NCBI GenBank assembly: GCA_963555825.3
Contig: CAUVXB020000002.1
Location: 1,344,001-1,408,000, forward strand
Direction of reading: 5' to 3'
Length of the DNA stretch: 64,000 nt
DNA from: Alphaproteobacteria bacterium
GTDB taxonomy: Bacteria; Pseudomonadota; Alphaproteobacteria; JAAXGF01
Shown here: positions 29,120-64,000 of the stretch, piece after piece
How positions within the stretch are numbered: position 1 is the stretch's first letter
How the letters are laid out: the number at the start of each line of letters is the position of its first letter
Program-made: the position numbers and the translations under genes
Notes under the pieces: model-generated
What the model was told of the DNA's origin: nothing
Seen by the model: the letters and a program-made list of their open reading frames with translations, nothing else
The model's database searches: none

Positions 29120-30151
29120 CTATGCGGCCGCCTCCTTGGTTGACCAGATGAAGTCCGTTCCATCACGCCACATGCGATGGAGGATGACCGCCAGCTTCCG
29201 TGCCACGGCGATCTTGGCCTTCTTGAAGCCGATGCGTTTCCACAACCTGTGACCCCAGGCCTTGAGCGCGCACCATCGCGGCACCCGGGTGAGCAGCACG
29301 CCGGCCGCCTCGAAGAGGTAGGTCCTGAGCATTCGATCGCCGCATTTGGAGATCCGCCCCGTCCAATCGACCTCGCCGGAAGCATGGCGGCGCGGCGTCA
29401 GCCCGATGTACGCGCCGACACTCCGGGAACGTCGGAAGCGGCTCGGCTCGTCGATCGCCGAGTGGAAGGCCAAGGCGGTGATCGGCCCGATGCCTGGAAC
29501 CGTCATGGAACGTCTGCTGTCCTCGTCGTTCCGCGCCAGGCCCAGCAGCTTGCGATAGAGCGCGGCGATCTCTCGGCCGACCTTCTCGCGGACTTCCAGA
29601 AGGGGCCGAACGGCCTCCGACAAAAGACCCTGCCCGCCAAGCAGCTCTTCGACCCGGCGACGGAAGACATTGCCGCCCGCCTTGCCGATGACGAGGCCGA
29701 GGTTCTTGAGCAAGCCACGGATCTGGTTCTCGAGATCACGCTTGATCTTGACCAACTGGGCCCGGCTGTTCAGGACGGCCCGTATCTCGTGGCACGCCAC
29801 GCTCTTGACTTGGACCTCCTTGTACCAACCGCACTGCATGATCCGCGCGATCCCGGCGGCATCGTTCCGGTCGCTCTTGTTGATCTGCATCGACAGCGCC
29901 GCCTTGGCATGACGCGCATCGATGCAGATCACCGGCAAGCCGAGCGCCCTGAGCTCATGCCACAGCCAGGTCGTCGTCGGACCGGTCTCCAGACCGATGC
30001 GCTTTGCGTGCGGCGCCGTTGTCCTGATATACGCCGCGATTGCCGCCGGCTCCGAGATCACCACGCCCTCGGACACGATCTCGCCGTTGTCATCGACCAC
30101 GCAGATCGAGGTCTCCTTGAGCGATACATCCATTCCAACATACAGTTCCAT
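29120..30151 (-). CDS. IS110-family DEDD recombinase/transposase
   Basis: VGMDVS, GLE, KSDRNDA, PGIG, GLTP...ASG, ISKCGD, VARKL. Confidence 0.95.
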   Translation of the reverse strand: MELYVGMDVSLKETSICVVDDNGEIVSEGVVISEPAAIAAYIRTTAPHAKRIGLETGPTTTWLWHELRALGLPVICIDARHAKAALSMQINKSDRNDAAGIARIMQCGWYKEVQVKSVACHEIRAVLNSRAQLVKIKRDLENQIRGLLKNLGLVIGKAGGNVFRRRVEELLGGQGLLSEAVRPLLEVREKVGREIAALYRKLLGLARNDEDSRRSMTVPGIGPITALAFHSAIDEPSRFRRSRSVGAYIGLTPRRHASGEVDWTGRISKCGDRMLRTYLFEAAGVLLTRVPRWCALKAWGHRLWKRIGFKKAKIAVARKLAVILHRMWRDGTDFIWSTKEAAA

Positions 30152-55969: not shown

Positions 55970-56374
55970 CTATTGCTTGTCGAGCTGCCTGACGGCTGCG
56001 AGTTCCATCGCCCAGGGCTGCGCCGAGCGGCACCAGTACTGGAACTTCGGCTGGAGCTGGTCGCGCTGGCGCGCGGTACCGAGGCGGAGGTTGAGGGTTT
56101 TCGGCCCGTCGCCGACCGAGAACGAATAGAGCGGCGAGGCACATTCTGGGCAGAAGACCTGATGGTTCGTCGCGCCGCTCTCGGCCGTCTTGACGTGGGT
56201 CTTGGGCGTGCCCGAGAGCAGCTCGAAGTTCGCTTCGGGCGTATGCACCGCCCAACGAAACGCCGAGCCGGTGATCGACTGGCAGTCGGTACAATGGCAG
56301 ACGTAGACCCTGTCGGGATCAACCTCGGCCCGATACGTGATGTGCCCGCAGTGGCACGACCCGTCGATTTTCAT
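55970..56374 (-). CDS. GFA (CENP-V) family protein
   Basis: GSCHCG, CHCTDC, FCPEC. Confidence 0.88.
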
Positions 56375-56510
56375 GTTCCCACTCCTTGCTGATGCCCACC
56401 GACGATCCAATCGGCAGGCCCAGATTATCAAACGTCGACCGGTGTTGCCTCGGTTAAGATGCGACAGGGGACCCGGCCCGGAGTTCCCACCGATTGCCCG
56501 AGGAAAACCA

Positions 56511-57281
56511 ATGTTGGGCGCCATTGCCGGCGACATCGTCGGCTCGATCTACGAGCACCGCAACATCAAGACCAAGGACTTTGCGCTGTTCGGCGCGCGC
56601 TGCGATTTCACCGACGACACCGTCTGCACGGTCGCCGTCGCCGACTGCCTGATCGCCGGTGGTGATTTCGCCGACTACCTGCGCCGCTATGCCCTGGCGT
56701 ATCCCAACCGGGGCTACGGCGGCATGTTCCAACAATGGGCGATGACCGGCGGCGGGCCCTACAACAGCTGGGGCAACGGCTCGGCCATGCGGGTCAGCCC
56801 GGTCGCCCACGCCGCGCGCGACGAGCACGACGCCCTCGAGCTCGCCCGGCGATCATCGGCGGTGACCCACGACCACCCGGACGCGGTCGCCGGCGCCCAG
56901 GCGGTCGCGCTCGCCATGTGGCTGGCGCGCGCGGGCGCCGACGCGCTGGCGATTCGCCGCGAGATCGCCGCCCGCTTCGGTTACGATCTCGCGCCGAGCG
57001 TCGACGACATCCGGCCGCATTACCGCTTCGACGTGTCGGCCGCCGGCACGGTGCCCCAGGCGATCACCTGCGCGCTCGAGGCGACCGGTTACGAGGACGC
57101 GCTGCGCAACGCGATCTCGATCGGCGGCGATTCCGACACGCTCGCCTGCATCACCGGCGGCATCGCCGAGCTCCTGTTCGGCCTGCCCGACGACATCGCC
57201 GAAACCGCGCGGCGCCACCTCACCGACGATCTGCGCGCCGTGGTCGACCGGTTTACCGACGCCGTCCAGACCGCCGAGTAG
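56511..57281 (+). CDS. ADP-ribosylglycohydrolase family protein
   Basis: GAIAGD, TDDT, GNGSAMR, GGDSDT. Confidence 0.92.
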   Translation: MLGAIAGDIVGSIYEHRNIKTKDFALFGARCDFTDDTVCTVAVADCLIAGGDFADYLRRYALAYPNRGYGGMFQQWAMTGGGPYNSWGNGSAMRVSPVAHAARDEHDALELARRSSAVTHDHPDAVAGAQAVALAMWLARAGADALAIRREIAARFGYDLAPSVDDIRPHYRFDVSAAGTVPQAITCALEATGYEDALRNAISIGGDSDTLACITGGIAELLFGLPDDIAETARRHLTDDLRAVVDRFTDAVQTAE

Positions 57282-57291
57282 CGCGCGTGGC

Positions 57292-58741
57292 GGCGATGTC
57301 CCTATCTCTGTTGAAATTCGTGGGGCAGGCGTCGCTGGTTGATGATGCTATGCTGCCTTCATGATGGTTTCAATGGCACTGTCGGCCTGAGCCTTTCTCA
57401 AGTGTTCCTGGAGAGCATTTCGGAGGATGGGCAGCTGACGATAGGCCTTGAGGCGACGGAAGGTTTTCTGGGCCTCCAGCAGGCCGGCGGCGGTCCATCT
57501 GAGCGCCATCTCGGCGTGTCTCCAGCGTTTGACGTTGCGGGTGACCTGGCGCACCGTGCCGAGCGCGTTCTCGACGATGTTGGTGCAGGCGAGCGAGCGC
57601 CGGAGTTCGTGCGGCAGGCCGAGGCGGATGACGGTGAGGATCTCGTCCAGCCCCTCCAGGATGCTGCCCGAGACGCCCGGTTCCTCATGCTCCAGACGCC
57701 GGGCCAGGTTGCGCAGCAGCCGTTCGGCCTTGTCTGCGTCGTCCTGGTCCCAGGCCTGACGGAGCGCCTTCTTGACGCTCGCATGCAAATGCAGGGGCAG
57801 GCGCTCGATGATGTTACGGCCCTTGTGGACCTGGCAGCGCTGGATGGCGGCGGCCACACCGAAGGTGTTGCGGATCGCTTTGCTGAGCGCCTTCGCGCCA
57901 TCGACGATGAACAGCCGGGGCAGCGTCGGATCGAGCCCCCTGGCGAGGAGATTGTCGAGCAAGGCCTGGACGACGACAGTGTTCTCCGTCGCCCCCTCGA
58001 CCACGGCCAGGACATGCTTGTCGCCGTTGCCATCGACGCCGATCGCCGCCACCAAGACATGGTCGCCGACATGCAGACCGTCGATCTGGATGACCAGCAG
58101 GTCGAGCTCCGAGAGGTCCGAGGCGAGCCAGGCCTTCATCTTCTTGCGCGACAGCGCCACAAAGCGCCGGGAAACGGCCGACTTCGAGGTGCCGTCGCCA
58201 CGCGCTTTCGCCAGGTCGCCCTCGGGCAGACGGACCGCGCGGTGGTACTTGCGGGTCGACACGTTCAGGACCATCAGGTTGAGCGCCCACTCGAGCAACA
58301 GGTTGCCGTCGCGCAGCACCTGCCAGCTCTCCAAACCCACCTCCTTGCCAGCATGGTCGCGAACCCGTGGCCGCTGCACTTTCACGCGGCCGCCGTGGTA
58401 GCCGATCTCGCTCTGCGTATGGCCCCAGCGATAACCCCGACGGTTCCCATGGCGACGATGTCGGGCCCCGCACACGGTCGTGGCGTCCTCCTCCATCATC
58501 TCGGCCAAGGCCTCGACCCCGGCCAGGAGACAGAACCGATCCACGCTGAGACGGACTGCGTCCATCGCGTCTGCCAGCGGCGGCATAGGAAACGAGGTGG
58601 CAAGGGCTTTCGGGCTACTGGAACTACGGATATTCTTTCCCATGGTGTCGTTCTCCCTCTTGGGTTTGCAGCACCCGGAGCCTAACGGCTCCAGGAGAGC
58701 GACACCTACCTCAACTTTTCAACATCGACCGGGACATCTCC
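57292..58741 (-). mobile_element. IS256-family element (transposase 57348-58643), 8-bp TSD
   Basis: TIR GGCGATGTCCC/GGGACATCTCC; CGCGTGGC duplicated; IDG, VDG, CQVH, TNIVE. Confidence 0.92.
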
Positions 58742-58802
58742 CGCGTGGCGCGCTGACAGCGGCCACGCATCCGCCAGGCCCCGACAAAGGGCCGGGAGCC
58801 AA

Positions 58803-59073
58803 CATGTGTGGACGGCTCCCTGTTGGCAAGAGATTTTGTGACGTTGATGCAAGCTGGTCGGGTGCTGCCATGTGTGGACGGCTCCCTGTTGGCAAGAGAT
58901 TTTGTGACGTTGATGCAAGCTGGTCGGGTGCTGCCATGTGTGGACGGCTCCCTGTTGGCAAGAGATTTTGTGACGTTGATGCAAGCTGGTCGGGTGCTGC
59001 CATGTGTGGACGGCTCCCTGTTGGCAAGAGATTTTGTGACGTTGATGCAAGCTGGTCGGGTGCTGCCATGTGT
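58803..59073. repeat. Four tandem 66-bp repeats of the IS110 end
   Basis: Units start at 58803, 58869, 58935, 59001; CATGTGT microhomology at 59067. Confidence 0.97.
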
Positions 59074-60744
59074 CCGGCCTTTTGGTGCGGCGTACATGGC
59101 CGCTGGCCCTAATGCGATCCGCGGGGTCGGGTCCCAGTCATAAGCACGCGCTCGAGGCGCCGTGGCTATAGCGGGTTTTCCCGATCCTCGGTTCGACCGA
59201 TTTTGCATTACGTCACTTACACTCCGCCAAACTCGTGAACGCCTTGTTTTCGTCGGCCTAGGCCGTCGCGGGCCTGCGATAGGTTCCGCCATGTCTCAGA
59301 AGCGCCCAGGCAATGCGGGCGTTCTTGTTGGCCAGCGCCACGGCCGCGACCTTGGTCGGCTTGTCGGCGATGATGTTGGCAAGCCATGGATCGGTCGTGC
59401 CGCGTCGCTTGGCGTGGCGGATGACCGTCATGGCGCCGGCGACCAGCAGCCAGCGCAGGTATTGATCGCCCTGCTTGGAGATCCGCCCCATGCGCTCCTT
59501 GCCACCGGTCGAGTTCTGTCTTGGCACCAGCCCGATCCAAGCGGCCATTGAGCGGCCCGATTTGAAGATCGACGGATTGGCAATCGAAGATGCCAGCGCG
59601 CTCGCCGTGATCGGTCCGATGCCGGGTGTGGTTTCGAGACGCAGGCTCTCTTCGTTCGTCCGGTGCCAGGCGTGGATACGCCTCTCAGCGCCGACGATCT
59701 CCCGCTCCAGCGACAGCAACTGCCGCGCCAGCCCTTCCAGGCAAGTCCGCGCCAGGGGCGGAATGCGCTCATCCGCCTCATCGCTGATCACCGCGAGCAG
59801 CTCCTTGACCTGCGGCAACCCGGTTCGCGCCACCACCCCGAACTCCGCCATGTGCGCCCGCGTAGCGTTGACCATGTGTGGACGGCTCCCTGTTGGCAAG
59901 AGATTTTGTGACGTTGATGCAAGCTGGTCGGGTGCTGCCATGTGTCCGGCCTTTTGGTGCGGCGTACATGGCCGCTGGCCCTAATGCGATCCGCGGGGTC
60001 GGGTCCCAGTCATAAGCACGCGCTCGAGGCGCCGTGGCTATAGCGGGTTTTCCCGATCCTCGGTTCGACCGATTTTGCATTACGTCACTTACACTCCGCC
60101 AAACTCGTGAACGCCTTGTTTTCGTCGGCCTAGGCCGTCGCGGGCCTGCGATAGGTTCCGCCATGTCTCAGAAGCGCCCAGGCAATGCGGGCGTTCTTGT
60201 TGGCCAGCGCCACGGCCGCGACCTTGGTCGGCTTGTCGGCGATGATGTTGGCAAGCCATGGATCGGTCGTGCCGCGTCGCTTGGCGTGGCGGATGACCGT
60301 CATGGCGCCGGCGACCAGCAGCCAGCGCAGGTATTGATCGCCCTGCTTGGAGATCCGCCCCATGCGCTCCTTGCCACCGGTCGAGTTCTGTCTTGGCACC
60401 AGCCCGATCCAAGCGGCCATTGAGCGGCCCGATTTGAAGATCGACGGATTGGCAATCGAAGATGCCAGCGCGCTCGCCGTGATCGGTCCGATGCCGGGTG
60501 TGGTTTCGAGACGCAGGCTCTCTTCGTTCGTCCGGTGCCAGGCGTGGATACGCCTCTCAGCGCCGACGATCTCCCGCTCCAGCGACAGCAACTGCCGCGC
60601 CAGCCCTTCCAGGCAAGTCCGCGCCAGGGGCGGAATGCGCTCATCCGCCTCATCGCTGATCACCGCGAGCAGCTCCTTGACCTGCGGCAACCCGGTTCGC
60701 GCCACCACCCCGAACTCCGCCATGTGCGCCCGCGTAGCGTTGAC
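59001..60744. repeat. 872-bp tandem duplication (IS110 non-coding end plus 3' part of the transposase)
   Basis: 59001-59872 equals 59873-60744; duplicated ORF translations. Confidence 0.95.
59900..60070 (-). ncRNA. Putative bridge/seekRNA (second copy near 59030-59200); boundaries approximate
   Basis: Loops carrying CATGTGT/ATGCG (donor-like) and CATAAGCA/TGGCT (target-like). Confidence 0.55.
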
Positions 60745-61152
60745 CAGCATGGTTCTCTGGCGGACCAGAAGCTCGCGCGTTCGGTGCAGCATCAGAACGC
60801 TCTGCTGCTCGACGCTCTTCACCGCGACAAAGCGCATCGTCGGGCGCGTGACGGCCTCGCAAATAGCCTCCGCATCGGCAGCGTCATTCTTGTTCCGCTT
60901 CACGTAGGGCTTCACATAGCGCGGCGGCATCAGCTTGACCTCATGCCCAAGCGCCGCGATCTCCCGCGCCCAGTAATGCGCGGTCGCACATGCCTCCATA
61001 CCAACCAGGCAGGGCGGCTGTTTCTCGAAGAAGGCCAGCACCTGACGCCGCCTCAACTGACGGCGGACGACCACGGTTCCCTCGGCGTCAACGCCATGCA
61101 CCTGAAATACGTTCTTCGCAAGATCAACACCGATCGTGATAACTTCGTTCAT
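60130..61152 (-). CDS. IS110-family DEDD recombinase/transposase
   Basis: GVDLAK, MEAC, KNDAADA, GLVPRQNSTGG, ANKNAR. Confidence 0.95.
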   Translation of the reverse strand: MNEVITIGVDLAKNVFQVHGVDAEGTVVVRRQLRRRQVLAFFEKQPPCLVGMEACATAHYWAREIAALGHEVKLMPPRYVKPYVKRNKNDAADAEAICEAVTRPTMRFVAVKSVEQQSVLMLHRTRELLVRQRTMLVNATRAHMAEFGVVARTGLPQVKELLAVISDEADERIPPLARTCLEGLARQLLSLEREIVGAERRIHAWHRTNEESLRLETTPGIGPITASALASSIANPSIFKSGRSMAAWIGLVPRQNSTGGKERMGRISKQGDQYLRWLLVAGAMTVIRHAKRRGTTDPWLANIIADKPTKVAAVALANKNARIAWALLRHGGTYRRPATA

Positions 61153-61319
61153 GGACGGCTCCTATTTCCCTGTGGTTCATCGAAACCACCATTTTGGCAC
61201 CTAGATGCCTGCGGGTGGGAGCCGTCCACCGCATCATGAGCAGACATTCCGAGGATTCCCTCCGCGCATAGATTCTTCCACTGCGACTCGCTAATCTCGC
61301 TGGCAAGGGAGGACGTCAC

Positions 61320-61658
61320 ATGAAGCGCCGCCTCGCGGCCATACTCGCTGTCGACGTGGTGGGCTACTCACGCCTCATGGAGGCGGACGAGGAGGCGACG
61401 CTCACGGCGCTAAACGCCTACCGCGAGGTCATCGACGGACTGATCGCGAACCACCGTGGCCGCGTGTTCGGCAGCGCCGGGGATAGCGTCGTTGCTGAAT
61501 TCCCAAGCTCGGTTGAGACGGTGCATTGTGCGGTCGATATGCTCGTAACCGAACGGTTGCCGCCCGACCTCGGCGCGGAACACGCGCAAGCCGACGTCGA
61601 GGTCGTCGAGGCCGGGACCGCTGCGCGGGATGGCCAGGATCCGGGACCGGCGCCGTGA
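61320..61658 (+). pseudogene. Truncated class III adenylate/guanylate cyclase
   Basis: RRLAAILAVDVVGYSRLM...AGDSVVAEF; similarity is lost before the second half of the domain. Confidence 0.75.
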
Positions 61659-62521
61659 ATCCGCTCCAAGCCGATCCTGGCGAACGCGGGGTCGTGGACC
61701 CCTCGAGCGCTATCGAACGAATTCGAGGCCTGTCCTGTTGGCGGTCACCGCCCCGAATCCGAGCGATCTCCGACGGCCGGACGAACCAAAACTATTTCGT
61801 CCACGCCGGGGATCGAACCTTCTTCGCGCGCCTCGGCGTCGATCTCCCGCATCACGGCATCACGCGCGCCAATGAGGTTCGCTGTTGCCGCCTCGCCGCG
61901 GTCGCGGACATCGCGCCGAAGGTGGTCTTCGCCGCCGAGGGCGTTCTGGTCACGGAGTTCATCGACGGCCGGACACTGGTTCAGGGTGAACCGATCTCAG
62001 ACGAAATTCTCGTTCGATTGGCCCACGGCTTAAGGTGTCTGCACGAATCCGAGGTGCCCGCTGACCTAGCGCCCTTCGATCCCGTGGAAAGATGCCGGCG
62101 CCAGCTCGCGGCGTTGCCGATTTCCGCCGTGCCGCCCACGCGCCGCCGGCGGGTCCTGGAAATTCTCCAGCGCGCGCCAAGACGCGAGGCGCGCAGCCTC
62201 ATTCACGGCGACCTGATACCCGAGAACGTCATCGTCCGGGACGATGCGCTGTTTCTAGTGGATTGGGAATACGCGGGACTTGGCGACCCTTTGGTGGATT
62301 TGGCCATGGTCGGCGTGCATTTCGGATTGCCGGAGCGACGGCGGCAAAACTTCTATTCCAGCTATGGCGATGTCGATCCCGATGCGGTGGCGCGCTTGGT
62401 GCCGGCAATCGCGGCGCGCGAGGCGGTCTGGTGCGCGACTCAAATTCATTTCGTCGGCCTCGCCGGCGATCTCGATGATTATGCGCGGCTGTGTTGGGAT
62501 CGGATCGAGGTGGAGCCGTGA
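61655..62521 (+). CDS. Choline/ethanolamine kinase-like phosphotransferase
   Basis: GRTNQNY, HGDLIPEN, VDWEYAG. Confidence 0.85.
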   Translation: MNPLQADPGERGVVDPSSAIERIRGLSCWRSPPRIRAISDGRTNQNYFVHAGDRTFFARLGVDLPHHGITRANEVRCCRLAAVADIAPKVVFAAEGVLVTEFIDGRTLVQGEPISDEILVRLAHGLRCLHESEVPADLAPFDPVERCRRQLAALPISAVPPTRRRRVLEILQRAPRREARSLIHGDLIPENVIVRDDALFLVDWEYAGLGDPLVDLAMVGVHFGLPERRRQNFYSSYGDVDPDAVARLVPAIAAREAVWCATQIHFVGLAGDLDDYARLCWDRIEVEP

Positions 62522-63912
62522 CCCAAACGGACTTCCAAGTCGCGGTCATCGGCGGCGGCGTGGTCGGTTGCGCGGTGCTGCGCGCCTTCGCGCTGGCTGG
62601 CGCGCGCGCCATCCTGATCGAGCGCGGGCCCGACATCCTTTCGGGTGCCAGCAAGGCCAACAGCGCCCTTCTGCATACCGGATACGACGCACCGACGGGC
62701 AGCCTGGAACTCGCGTGCGTGCGCGAGGGATACGACGCCTATCTGGAAATCCGGGAGCGTCTCAACCTGCCGCTGGTCGAGACCTCGGCCCTCATGGTTG
62801 CCTGGACTGAGGCCGAACGCGCGCGTTTGCCCGAACTGCTCGCCCACGCCGAGGCCAACGGAGTCGAAGGTGCAATCGCGCTCGATCGGCGCGAGGTTCT
62901 ACGCCGCGCCCCCGGTCTCAATCCCGAGGTGCGGGGTGCGATGCTGATCCCGGGCGAGCATGTCATCGATCCCTGGTCTGCACCGCTCGCCTATGCGCTG
63001 CAAGCGATCGCCAACGGTGCCATCGTGCAGCGGAACCGCGAGGTCACGGGCGGGGAGTTCGATGGCAGCCACTGGCGCCTAGAGACGACCCGGGGGCCGA
63101 TCGGCGCGGAGATTGTCATCAACTGCGCCGGTTTATTCGGCGACCTCGTGGAATCCATCATCCGCGACCCGCCGTTTCGCATCAACCCGCGCAAGGGTCA
63201 GTTCGTGGTCTTCGATAAGTCCGCGGCATCACTTGTGGATACGATCATCCTGCCGGTGCCGACCGAGGCGACGAAGGGCGTGTTGGTCGCGCCGACCGCC
63301 TTCGGCAACGTGTTGGTCGGACCTACCGCCGAGGAGCAGGACGATCGCGAGATGGCCGCCGTCGACACGGCAACGCTGAAGATGCTGGTCCGGCGCGCGG
63401 CGGAGATCGTTCCTGCACTCGCCAAACATCCGGTCACGGCGACCTATGCGGGCCTGCGCCCGGCTACCCAGTTCAAGGACTATCAGATCGAGGCACTCAC
63501 TGAACGTCAGTGGATAACGGTCGGTGGCATCCGCTCGACCGGCTTGACTGGCGCGCTCGGGATTGGCGCCCATGTCCGCCGGCTCTACGAGCAGAACTTC
63601 GCGCCGCTCGAAGACATTGCGGATCCGGTGTGGACGCCGGTGCCAAACCTGGCCGAGGCCCGGCCGAGGCCCTATCAGCAGGGCGGCTCGGGCGAGATCG
63701 TCTGTCACTGCGAATGGGTGACCCGCGGTGAGATTGAATCGGCGCTAGCGGGACCGCTGCCGGCTACCGACTTGAGCGGCCTCAAACGGCGCACCCGCTG
63801 CATGATGGGCCGCTGCCAGGGTTTCTATTGTGCTTGGCGCGTCGCCCAACTCGCGGCCGGACACATCGACATTCCGCCCGCCGCGGGAGACGTTGGGAGA
63901 GACGCCGCGTGA
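62518..63912 (+). CDS. FAD-dependent oxidoreductase (GlpA/LhgO-like) with BFD-like [2Fe-2S] domain
   Basis: IGGGVVG, ASKANS, AGLRP, CHCE...GRCQGFYC. Confidence 0.88.
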   Translation: MTQTDFQVAVIGGGVVGCAVLRAFALAGARAILIERGPDILSGASKANSALLHTGYDAPTGSLELACVREGYDAYLEIRERLNLPLVETSALMVAWTEAERARLPELLAHAEANGVEGAIALDRREVLRRAPGLNPEVRGAMLIPGEHVIDPWSAPLAYALQAIANGAIVQRNREVTGGEFDGSHWRLETTRGPIGAEIVINCAGLFGDLVESIIRDPPFRINPRKGQFVVFDKSAASLVDTIILPVPTEATKGVLVAPTAFGNVLVGPTAEEQDDREMAAVDTATLKMLVRRAAEIVPALAKHPVTATYAGLRPATQFKDYQIEALTERQWITVGGIRSTGLTGALGIGAHVRRLYEQNFAPLEDIADPVWTPVPNLAEARPRPYQQGGSGEIVCHCEWVTRGEIESALAGPLPATDLSGLKRRTRCMMGRCQGFYCAWRVAQLAAGHIDIPPAAGDVGRDAA

Positions 63913-64000
63913 GCCGGCACGACGCCATCATCGTCGGCGGCGGCCCAGCCGGGCTCTCCGCCGCTCGGGCGCTGCGCGAGGCGGGCGTGGACGACGTGGT
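63909..64000 (+). CDS. NAD(P)/FAD-dependent oxidoreductase, partial
   Basis: GTG start; IIVGGGPAGLSAA. Confidence 0.75.
   Translation, partial: MSRHDAIIVGGGPAGLSAARALREAGVDDV

Follow-up and report, generated by a model that had tools for sequence, protein, structure and literature searches.

The right end of an insertion element of the IS110 family has been duplicated head to tail many times over in the genome analysed here, and the arrays that resulted are probably the scars of one-sided 'half-match' recombination, carried out at the core dinucleotide by the RNA-guided recombinase of the element itself. The window considered is a stretch of 64,000 nucleotides (G000:C2:1344001-1408000) from a genome assembled in two contigs of 2.41 and 3.63 Mb. 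The anatomy of the arrays, the rule that their junctions obey, the assignment of the guides, the confinement to one end and the recurrence in other genomes are shown directly; the dependence on recombinase and bridge RNA, and the exact pathway, we infer solely from the junction rule. The features of the window and the arrays at other copies of the element are collected in Table 1; here and below, a slash marks a junction.

Table 1. Features of the window element and its arrays, and arrays at other copies in the genome (C1 and C2 are the two contigs)
Feature	Position	Strand	Basis or remark
Core dinucleotide CA (TG in element orientation), outermost junction with chromosomal flank	58803..58804	.	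six-copy alignment
Three additional 66-bp units, terminus to left-donor-guide core	58805..59002	(-)	junctions 58870/58871, 58936/58937, 59002/59003
872-bp unit	59003..59874	(-)	letter-for-letter duplicate of 59875-60746; joins the terminus of the complete copy at 59874/59875
Junction-made 227-aa open frame, predicted	59258..59941	(-)	starts in 66-bp segment, runs into C-terminal (Transposase_20) half of transposase
Complete IS1111-type IS110-family element, 1362 bp	59875..61236	(-)	boundaries set by six near-identical copies
Right end, left-donor arm (LD)	59875
Right-end subterminal inverted repeat GTGGACGGCTCCC	59878..59890	(+)	repeat search; partner 61217-61229
Predicted bridge/seek RNA gene, the 255-nt non-coding region downstream of the transposase	59875..60129	(-)	alignment of subfamilies and relatives, RNAalifold
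Left-donor guide DNA (RNA GGACACA-UG-GC)	59937..59947	(-)	covaries with element end; second copy 59065-59075
Right-donor guide DNA (RNA AUCGCAUUA)	59982..59990	(-)	inferred pairing with left-end top strand, G-U pair at core
Left-target guide DNA (RNA GUGCUUA-UG)	60011..60019	(-)	matches left-target flanks of the copies
Right-target guide DNA (RNA CUAUAGCCA)	60035..60043	(-)	reverse complement TGGCTATAG matches right flanks TGGCT... in 4/6 copies
Transposase/recombinase gene, 340 aa	60130..61152	(-)	Pfam
One CA core copy, counted within the element	61235..61236
Left end, right-donor arm (RD)	61236
Array, window copy			66 x 3 extra + 872
Array, copy C1:170054			94 x 2 + 134 x 2
Array, copy C1:2234568			94, 134, then ~600 bp degenerate mosaic
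Array, copy C2:2097959			~1.7 kb; units 24, 138, 94, 296; outer units degenerate

Six near-identical copies of the element (hereafter, subfamily A) are present in the genome, with a protein that is 100% identical in five of them and 99.4% identical in one. Alignment of their edges places the element between TGTGTGG... (59875, reference position 1) and ...CGCATCA (61236). In every copy a CA stands just outside the right end (..CA/TGTGTGG) and the left end closes as ..CGCATCA/flank; since CA lies on both sides of all copies, it is taken as the core dinucleotide (TG in element orientation), and the six insertion sites share a target consensus with the CA core on each side. A preliminary description of this DNA had correctly begun the repeated unit at the end of the element, except that the terminus proper falls on the T of TGTGTGG (58805 and 59875) and the CA before it is the core, shared with the flank.

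The transposase carries an N-terminal DEDD (RuvC-like) domain (Pfam DEDD_Tnp_IS110, PF01548, E 1.7e-16) and a C-terminal Transposase_20 domain (PF02371, E 7.9e-26), both above the cut-offs, and the IS110 family named in the preliminary description is thereby confirmed. Within the family the element is, by its sequence features, of the IS1111 type and lies on the minus strand. The placement follows from a 13-bp perfect pair of subterminal inverted repeats, set in 3 and 7 nt from the ends, from a non-coding region of 255 nt downstream of the transposase gene versus about 84 nt upstream, and from the motif GLVPRQNSTG, which as read in the translation fits the IS1111 motif GL-P----S/TG. The available text of PMC11187229 describes the IS1111 group by this motif, by a transposase of 330-350 aa and by a long non-coding region downstream of tnp.

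Tandem Repeats Finder returned a single array at 58803-59073, with a period of 66, 4.1 copies, 100% matches and no indels, and a script identified 58803-59066 as four identical 66-mers. The unit spans the DNA from the element end, (CA)TGTGTGG, to an internal (CA)TGTGTCC, as the preliminary description had proposed for its four-fold amplified end and internal CATGTGT. The right-end inverted repeat recurs within the units at 58808, 58874, 58940 and 59006. The 872-bp duplication into the transposase gene was likewise recovered exactly: its junction reads ..GCGTAGCGTTGAC-CA/TGTGTGGACGG, where the intact gene continues ..GTTGAC-CA/GCATGG. The unit contains a right end, transposase codons 132-340 and, at 59003-59257, the claimed second full non-coding region; by tblastn the truncated gene corresponds to residues 132-340 (the 3' 209 codons), with Transposase_20 as its only Pfam domain.

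The window holds other mobile elements. An IS256/Mutator-family element (57293-58749), 52 bp from the array, encodes a 431-aa transposase (Pfam Transposase_mut) between imperfect terminal inverted repeats, is flanked by what looks like an 8-bp target duplication, GCGTGGCG, and sits right after an ADP-ribosylglycohydrolase gene. Another IS110-family transposase gene is found at 29255-29998 on the minus strand (32% identical over residues 50-299, with three more copies in the genome), which is presumably what the preliminary description counted as the first IS110. At G000:C2:960740-960830, a 28-nt left-end remnant is followed by a near-copy of the window element's left-end-side flank (61237 onward); this flank is itself a repeated sequence.

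Arrays of right-end fragments lie outside the right end in four of the six subfamily A copies and outside the left end in none. Their units measure 24, 66, 94, 134, 138, 296 and 872 bp. Every unit starts at the LD terminus and maps to right-end positions 1 to p, with no left-end (RD) pieces adjacent. A census of junctions flanked by at least 14 exact bases on either side gave 24 clean junctions, of which 18, in seven classes, have an internal CA on one side and on the other exactly the terminus, reference position 1. One further junction, 94/67, joins site 94 to left-donor-guide coding DNA with a 4-nt overlap; it belongs to a 28-bp internal tandem duplication (reference 67-94) at G000:C2:2098930-2099100, in the array of the C2:2097959 copy, where the guide-coding DNA stands in for the terminus as a surrogate end. 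The remaining five are other internal deletions, off the terminus. A second 296 junction is visible besides these; a base change in it kept it out of the census.

All seven junction classes fall directly after CA, a dinucleotide found at 7% of element positions (~8e-9 under independence). The sites used are also strongly clustered: the element holds 95 CA sites, 13 of them in the first 300 bp, and six of these 13 serve as breakpoints against one of the 82 further in (Fisher 1.3e-5). Because the same terminus has been re-joined at three other element copies in the genome and the CA rule holds in all seven classes, the duplications in the window are not a product of chance.

The same observations bear on the possibility, allowed for in the preliminary description, that the array is an assembly artefact of a repeat-rich region. 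The public runs that cover 58700-59140 are short-read contigs, which are unable to give a copy number; none of the contigs listed spans the array, bins of X5, X17 and X1 that have no cover do not speak for its absence, and no run with the stretch is on record as RNA. Four loci with different units nevertheless obey one junction rule, analogous duplications occur in unrelated assemblies (below), and in X1, a metagenome run of independent origin, one contig has 28 letters of the transposase end directly before the terminus, corresponding to the junction of position 296 with position 1 in the C2:2097959 array. The two-contig genome is, moreover, consistent with long reads. An artefact is therefore very unlikely.

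The outer or middle parts of two arrays (G000:C1:2233960-2234570 and C2:2099390-2099660) are degenerate mosaics of 76-93% identity with microhomology deletions, beside elements that are themselves 100% identical; either these arrays predate the resident copy or they are subject to a mutagenic process. No clean CA-junction product of a reciprocal deletion was found in the genome. A solo left-end fragment at G000:C2:1617119-1617255 was considered as such a product and rejected, its start not lying after CA in the reference, and solo right-end pieces were set aside as degenerate.

Two related subfamilies are present in the genome: B, with six copies at ~76-80% DNA identity to A, and C, with five copies at ~57% protein identity. 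A scan allowing up to two mismatches to the repeat of A found one right-end repeat in each of these 11 copies and an array in none. One 97% copy (L006, G000:C2:1504945-1506302) is a hybrid, with the right end and RNA gene of subfamily A and a left end and insertion site that match copy B_2409 (C2:2409232), which suggests homologous exchange between subfamilies. Right ends of subfamily B stand directly beside an inverted A-type right terminus (..ACATAGCCA/TGTGTGGACGG..) at two loci, G000:C2:525360-525640 and C2:1018376-1018420; the junction beside one element's end thus looks like the right target of the other.

The non-coding region downstream of the transposase is predicted to encode a bridge/seek RNA with two loops, the target-binding loop lying 5' and the donor-binding loop 3' in the aligned regions. 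RNAalifold, applied to 14 aligned non-coding regions (ten of them from other genomes), gave 31 pairs, 11 with compensatory changes. An Rfam scan of 56000-64000 at E<=1 returned no bridge-RNA family and only three chance matches, to eukaryotic families. The guides were assigned by covariation with flanks and ends across the three subfamilies. Guide core and end core change together, being TG in A, TA in B and AG/GG in C; the left-target guide of copy B_2409 is identical to its own flank over 8 nt; and the right-target guides of B_1069 and B_1013 differ exactly where their flanks differ. The left-donor guide, which holds the breakpoint of the 66-bp unit, combines 5 nt of the end with the core and with 2 nt that agree with the usual flank. 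For the window copy itself, the right flank at 58805 (TG/TTGGCTCC, element orientation) has nothing but the core in common with the right-target guide, while the left flank matches at 7/9; its own insertion looks like a half-match event.

The comparison was extended to 80 related loci from public genomes, with a recognisable right end in 71 and an inverted-repeat pair in 70. In 66 of the 71, the terminal 7-mer (5 nt plus core) is repeated 61-69 nt upstream, in seven co-varying versions, and the match mostly continues 2-3 nt into the flank, an extension that fits the handshake dinucleotides described in the accessible part of PMC13626964. The covariation with the end in three subfamilies and in these 66 relatives identifies CATGTGT as left-donor-guide coding DNA, and the preliminary description had thus placed it correctly in the donor-binding loop. 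The order of the guide matches also agrees with that given in PMC11187229, where, in the text available, the top-strand match of IS1111 seekRNAs lies 5' of the bottom-strand match.

Breakpoint 66 coincides with the core of the left-donor guide and breakpoint 138, used at another copy, with that of the left-target guide; guide cores are hit by these two of the seven breakpoint classes only. Breakpoint 296 resembles the left-target arm (5/7 plus core). For breakpoints 24, 94, 134 and 872, comparison by eye of both arms with the four guide arms found no similarity beyond the core. In these half-site comparisons the match of 138 to the left-target guide is identical by definition, and the 13 CA sites of the first 300 bp are too few for statistics. 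In the folding model, site 94 is found at the apex of the donor-loop hairpin, in its apical loop. Two other accounts were rejected: that arrays are confined to subfamily A through the G-U pair at the right-donor guide core, as copy B_2409 has this pair too; and that the units were templated by 3' fragments of the bridge RNA, as the 296 and 872 units reach into the transposase gene and the junctions are all at the core.

The preliminary description had seen a built-in hotspot in a guide identical to the element's own end. Guide DNA has indeed been used, both as partner (66) and as surrogate end (the 94/67 junction). As a general cause, however, guide identity is not supported: it is universal in the clade and none of the relatives examined has the guide duplication, subfamilies B and C have no arrays, and five of the seven classes lie off the guide cores. 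The hotspot thus appears to be the left-donor end together with any nearby core dinucleotide, and not guide identity as such.

Slippage, which the preliminary description had offered beside self-recombination, could in a more general form have made tandem duplications by microhomology with no recombinase, CATGTGT (7 nt) and other short repeats serving as slip points. The overlap is 7 nt at the 66-bp junction and 4 nt at the 94 junction, and these two could have arisen in this way; growth from two to four identical 66-bp units needs no site-specific enzyme, and microhomology internal deletions occur in the older arrays. As the origin of the arrays, slippage is nonetheless unlikely. It leaves unexplained why 18 of the 24 junctions have the exact terminus as one partner and why the left end has no arrays. 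Two further observations argue against it: the overlap is limited to the 2-nt core in two of five classes (3 to 7 nt in the rest), and the guide/end repeats of B and C, which have no arrays, are 7-10 nt long (10 nt in B, longer than that of A). Nor is a 66-type duplication, at the left-donor guide, found in any of the relatives examined, even though 66 of the 71 carry the built-in repeat and some have the same or a longer guide/end identity.

End duplications of the same kind do recur in other genomes. A second right-end repeat within 200 bp was detected in three of the 70 loci with an inverted-repeat pair, and a second left-end repeat in none of them. In one of the three (L080, 67% aa identity) the duplicated right-end segment measures 98 bp, and its breakpoint, CA/TG, lies in the same donor-loop hairpin as site 94. 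The other two (L113 and L116), which occupy separate sites in a single genome, have a 192/193-bp right-end duplication in common, so the duplication travels with the element. When the 300-bp end was compared with G000 and 40 other genomes (12 of these 41 from the same family), the closest copy elsewhere was no nearer than 86%. In a 1902-nt contig from another organism's run (X5), the chromosomal flank 58742-58805 is followed by unrelated sequence, and the X5 strain thus has a different arrangement at the 58805 site, as judged from this contig.

These relatives also bear on a nested origin, in which an excised circle inserts into an internal pseudo-target of a resident copy, followed either by loss of one duplicated half or by excision of the composite via alternative ends and its re-insertion. 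Insertion at an internal site would yield the right-end junction seen here, there is a resemblance to the left-target arm at sites 138 and 296, elements bearing the duplication move as units (L113/L116), and the order 94-134 is common to two loci. Such an insertion would also require a junction of the left end with internal sequence, and this was found at none of the six copies and none of the 70 related loci; two steps would be needed every time. We regard this origin as improbable.

One-sided recombination by the element's own recombinase, the reading preferred here, would proceed as follows. In the normal cycle the right-end junction (LD - core TG - flank) recombines with the left-end junction. 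In the case of the arrays, the right-end junction would instead have been exchanged at the core with a TG inside the element, a short way upstream, which would set the terminus beside internal sequence as a junction of LD, core and 'new right target'. As the terminus is moved next to internal sequence, the terminal 24 to 872 bp would become duplicated head to tail. The exchange may have taken place between sister copies, or a small excised circle may have re-entered at the LD junction. Recognition would involve the LD arm, through the left-donor guide, and the core, and the partner would need little beyond a TG and nearness to the end; sites that copy a guide, in left-donor guide DNA (66) and left-target guide DNA (138), would be among such partners. 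From two units on, unequal crossing-over or slippage could alter the copy number, as in the four 66-bp units here, and elements with an array would still be able to transpose from the outermost end. Several points count against this scheme. For classes 24, 94, 134 and 872, the 'half-match' on the partner side has no support beyond the core, and other processes also act, given the five junctions off the terminus and the degenerate outer parts of two arrays. To these are added the failure to find a clean reciprocal deletion product, the overlaps by which slippage could have made the 66 and 94 junctions, and the presence of arrays in subfamily A but not in B and C.

Tandem units on the LD side of IS110 loci are already in print, in a preprint of August 2026 (bioRxiv 10.64898/2026.08.14.744561). 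In the part of that survey available, tandem non-coding units (n = 468) have boundaries with LD-only matches, and the authors suggest LD-initiated reactions that are resolved in place. The arrays described here are alike in the tandem units beside the transposase, the LD-only boundaries, the asymmetry of LD and RD and the half-match reading, and the values that the preprint uses (same strand, at least 50 bp, at least 95% identity, at least two copies, LD only) are reached by the 66-bp units (four copies at 100%) and the 872-bp units (two copies). The survey gives statistics on IS110 loci in general, and the term 'IS1111' is absent from its available text. Here, in comparison, every junction was mapped to the core and two of the partner sites are guide-coding DNA; the figures and supplements of the survey may show likewise. 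Since the element is of the IS1111 type, the LD side holds the bridge RNA gene, parts of which make up the amplified units. Our literature search found no description of such arrays for IS1111-type elements, and none with guide-coding DNA as partner.

Half-match recombination has been described for IS621 in vitro and in E. coli (bioRxiv 10.64898/2026.08.31.748434, as far as its accessible text goes). IS621 recombines substrates that match one arm and the core, LD-only sites included; donor-loop recognition alone can drive excision, and recognition between two donor-binding loops (DBL-DBL) is proposed. The sufficiency of core and one arm, the LD-only sites and the proposed recognition are shared with the present case. 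IS621 has its bridge RNA at the left end and a CT core, whereas here the record is a natural one, the element is of the IS1111 type with TG as its core, and the partner is internal to the element. For CazIS110-1, the text available (bioRxiv 10.1101/2025.10.25.684509) reports that LD-RT can be transferred directly to a new right target to give LD-nRT, the same type of junction as in all units here. There it is the second step of full transposition to a proper target; here it would stand alone, with an internal 'target'.

ISPpu9 and its derivatives ssr9/MITEPpu9 (PMC12288879, in the portion available) belong to the same family and recombine at a conserved dinucleotide (AG in ISPpu9), forming sub-element circles, one of which consists of ssr9 and a 3' tnp fragment. 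Copies of both end boxes (A'/B') delimit the ISPpu9 modules, whereas the units here have the right end only; they likewise differ from MITE-like mini IS110 elements, in which both ends bound the unit. ISEc11, ISKpn4 and ISPa11 resemble the element in having subterminal inverted repeats and a non-coding region downstream of tnp, and in the order of RNA matches; end amplification is not among the features described for them in the accessible text of PMC11187229.

A bolder reading is that the bridge RNA recognises its own gene, and that self-recombination there and at nearby core sites is a regular, perhaps regulated, outcome in IS1111-type elements. With the bridge RNA gene at the LD end, the DNA of the left-donor and left-target guides is by necessity a half-site with the correct core, and the RNA could thus recognise the gene that encodes it. 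We consider this rather doubtful. If true, self-recombination would raise the number of usable ends and amplify bridge-RNA genes, either whole or reduced to the donor loop, and it may change RNA dosage, make decoy donor-loop RNAs or set the boundaries at which the element is excised. It would constitute a form of self-targeting for which no safeguard is known.

Genome editors are being developed from bridge/seek-RNA recombinases, and active study is devoted to the off-target and one-sided reactions of these enzymes. The genome described here holds a natural record of about twenty one-sided events at single-base resolution, from one active IS1111-type element. As read from its junctions, the record shows that the left-donor end and the core dinucleotide are enough for the reaction, that the partner is chosen mostly by its nearness to the end, and that the element's own guide-coding DNA can be a partner or a surrogate end; it also shows that elements with such duplications still move. 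For the design of editors it carries a warning, in that a guide cassette placed beside a donor arm is a potential recombination site.
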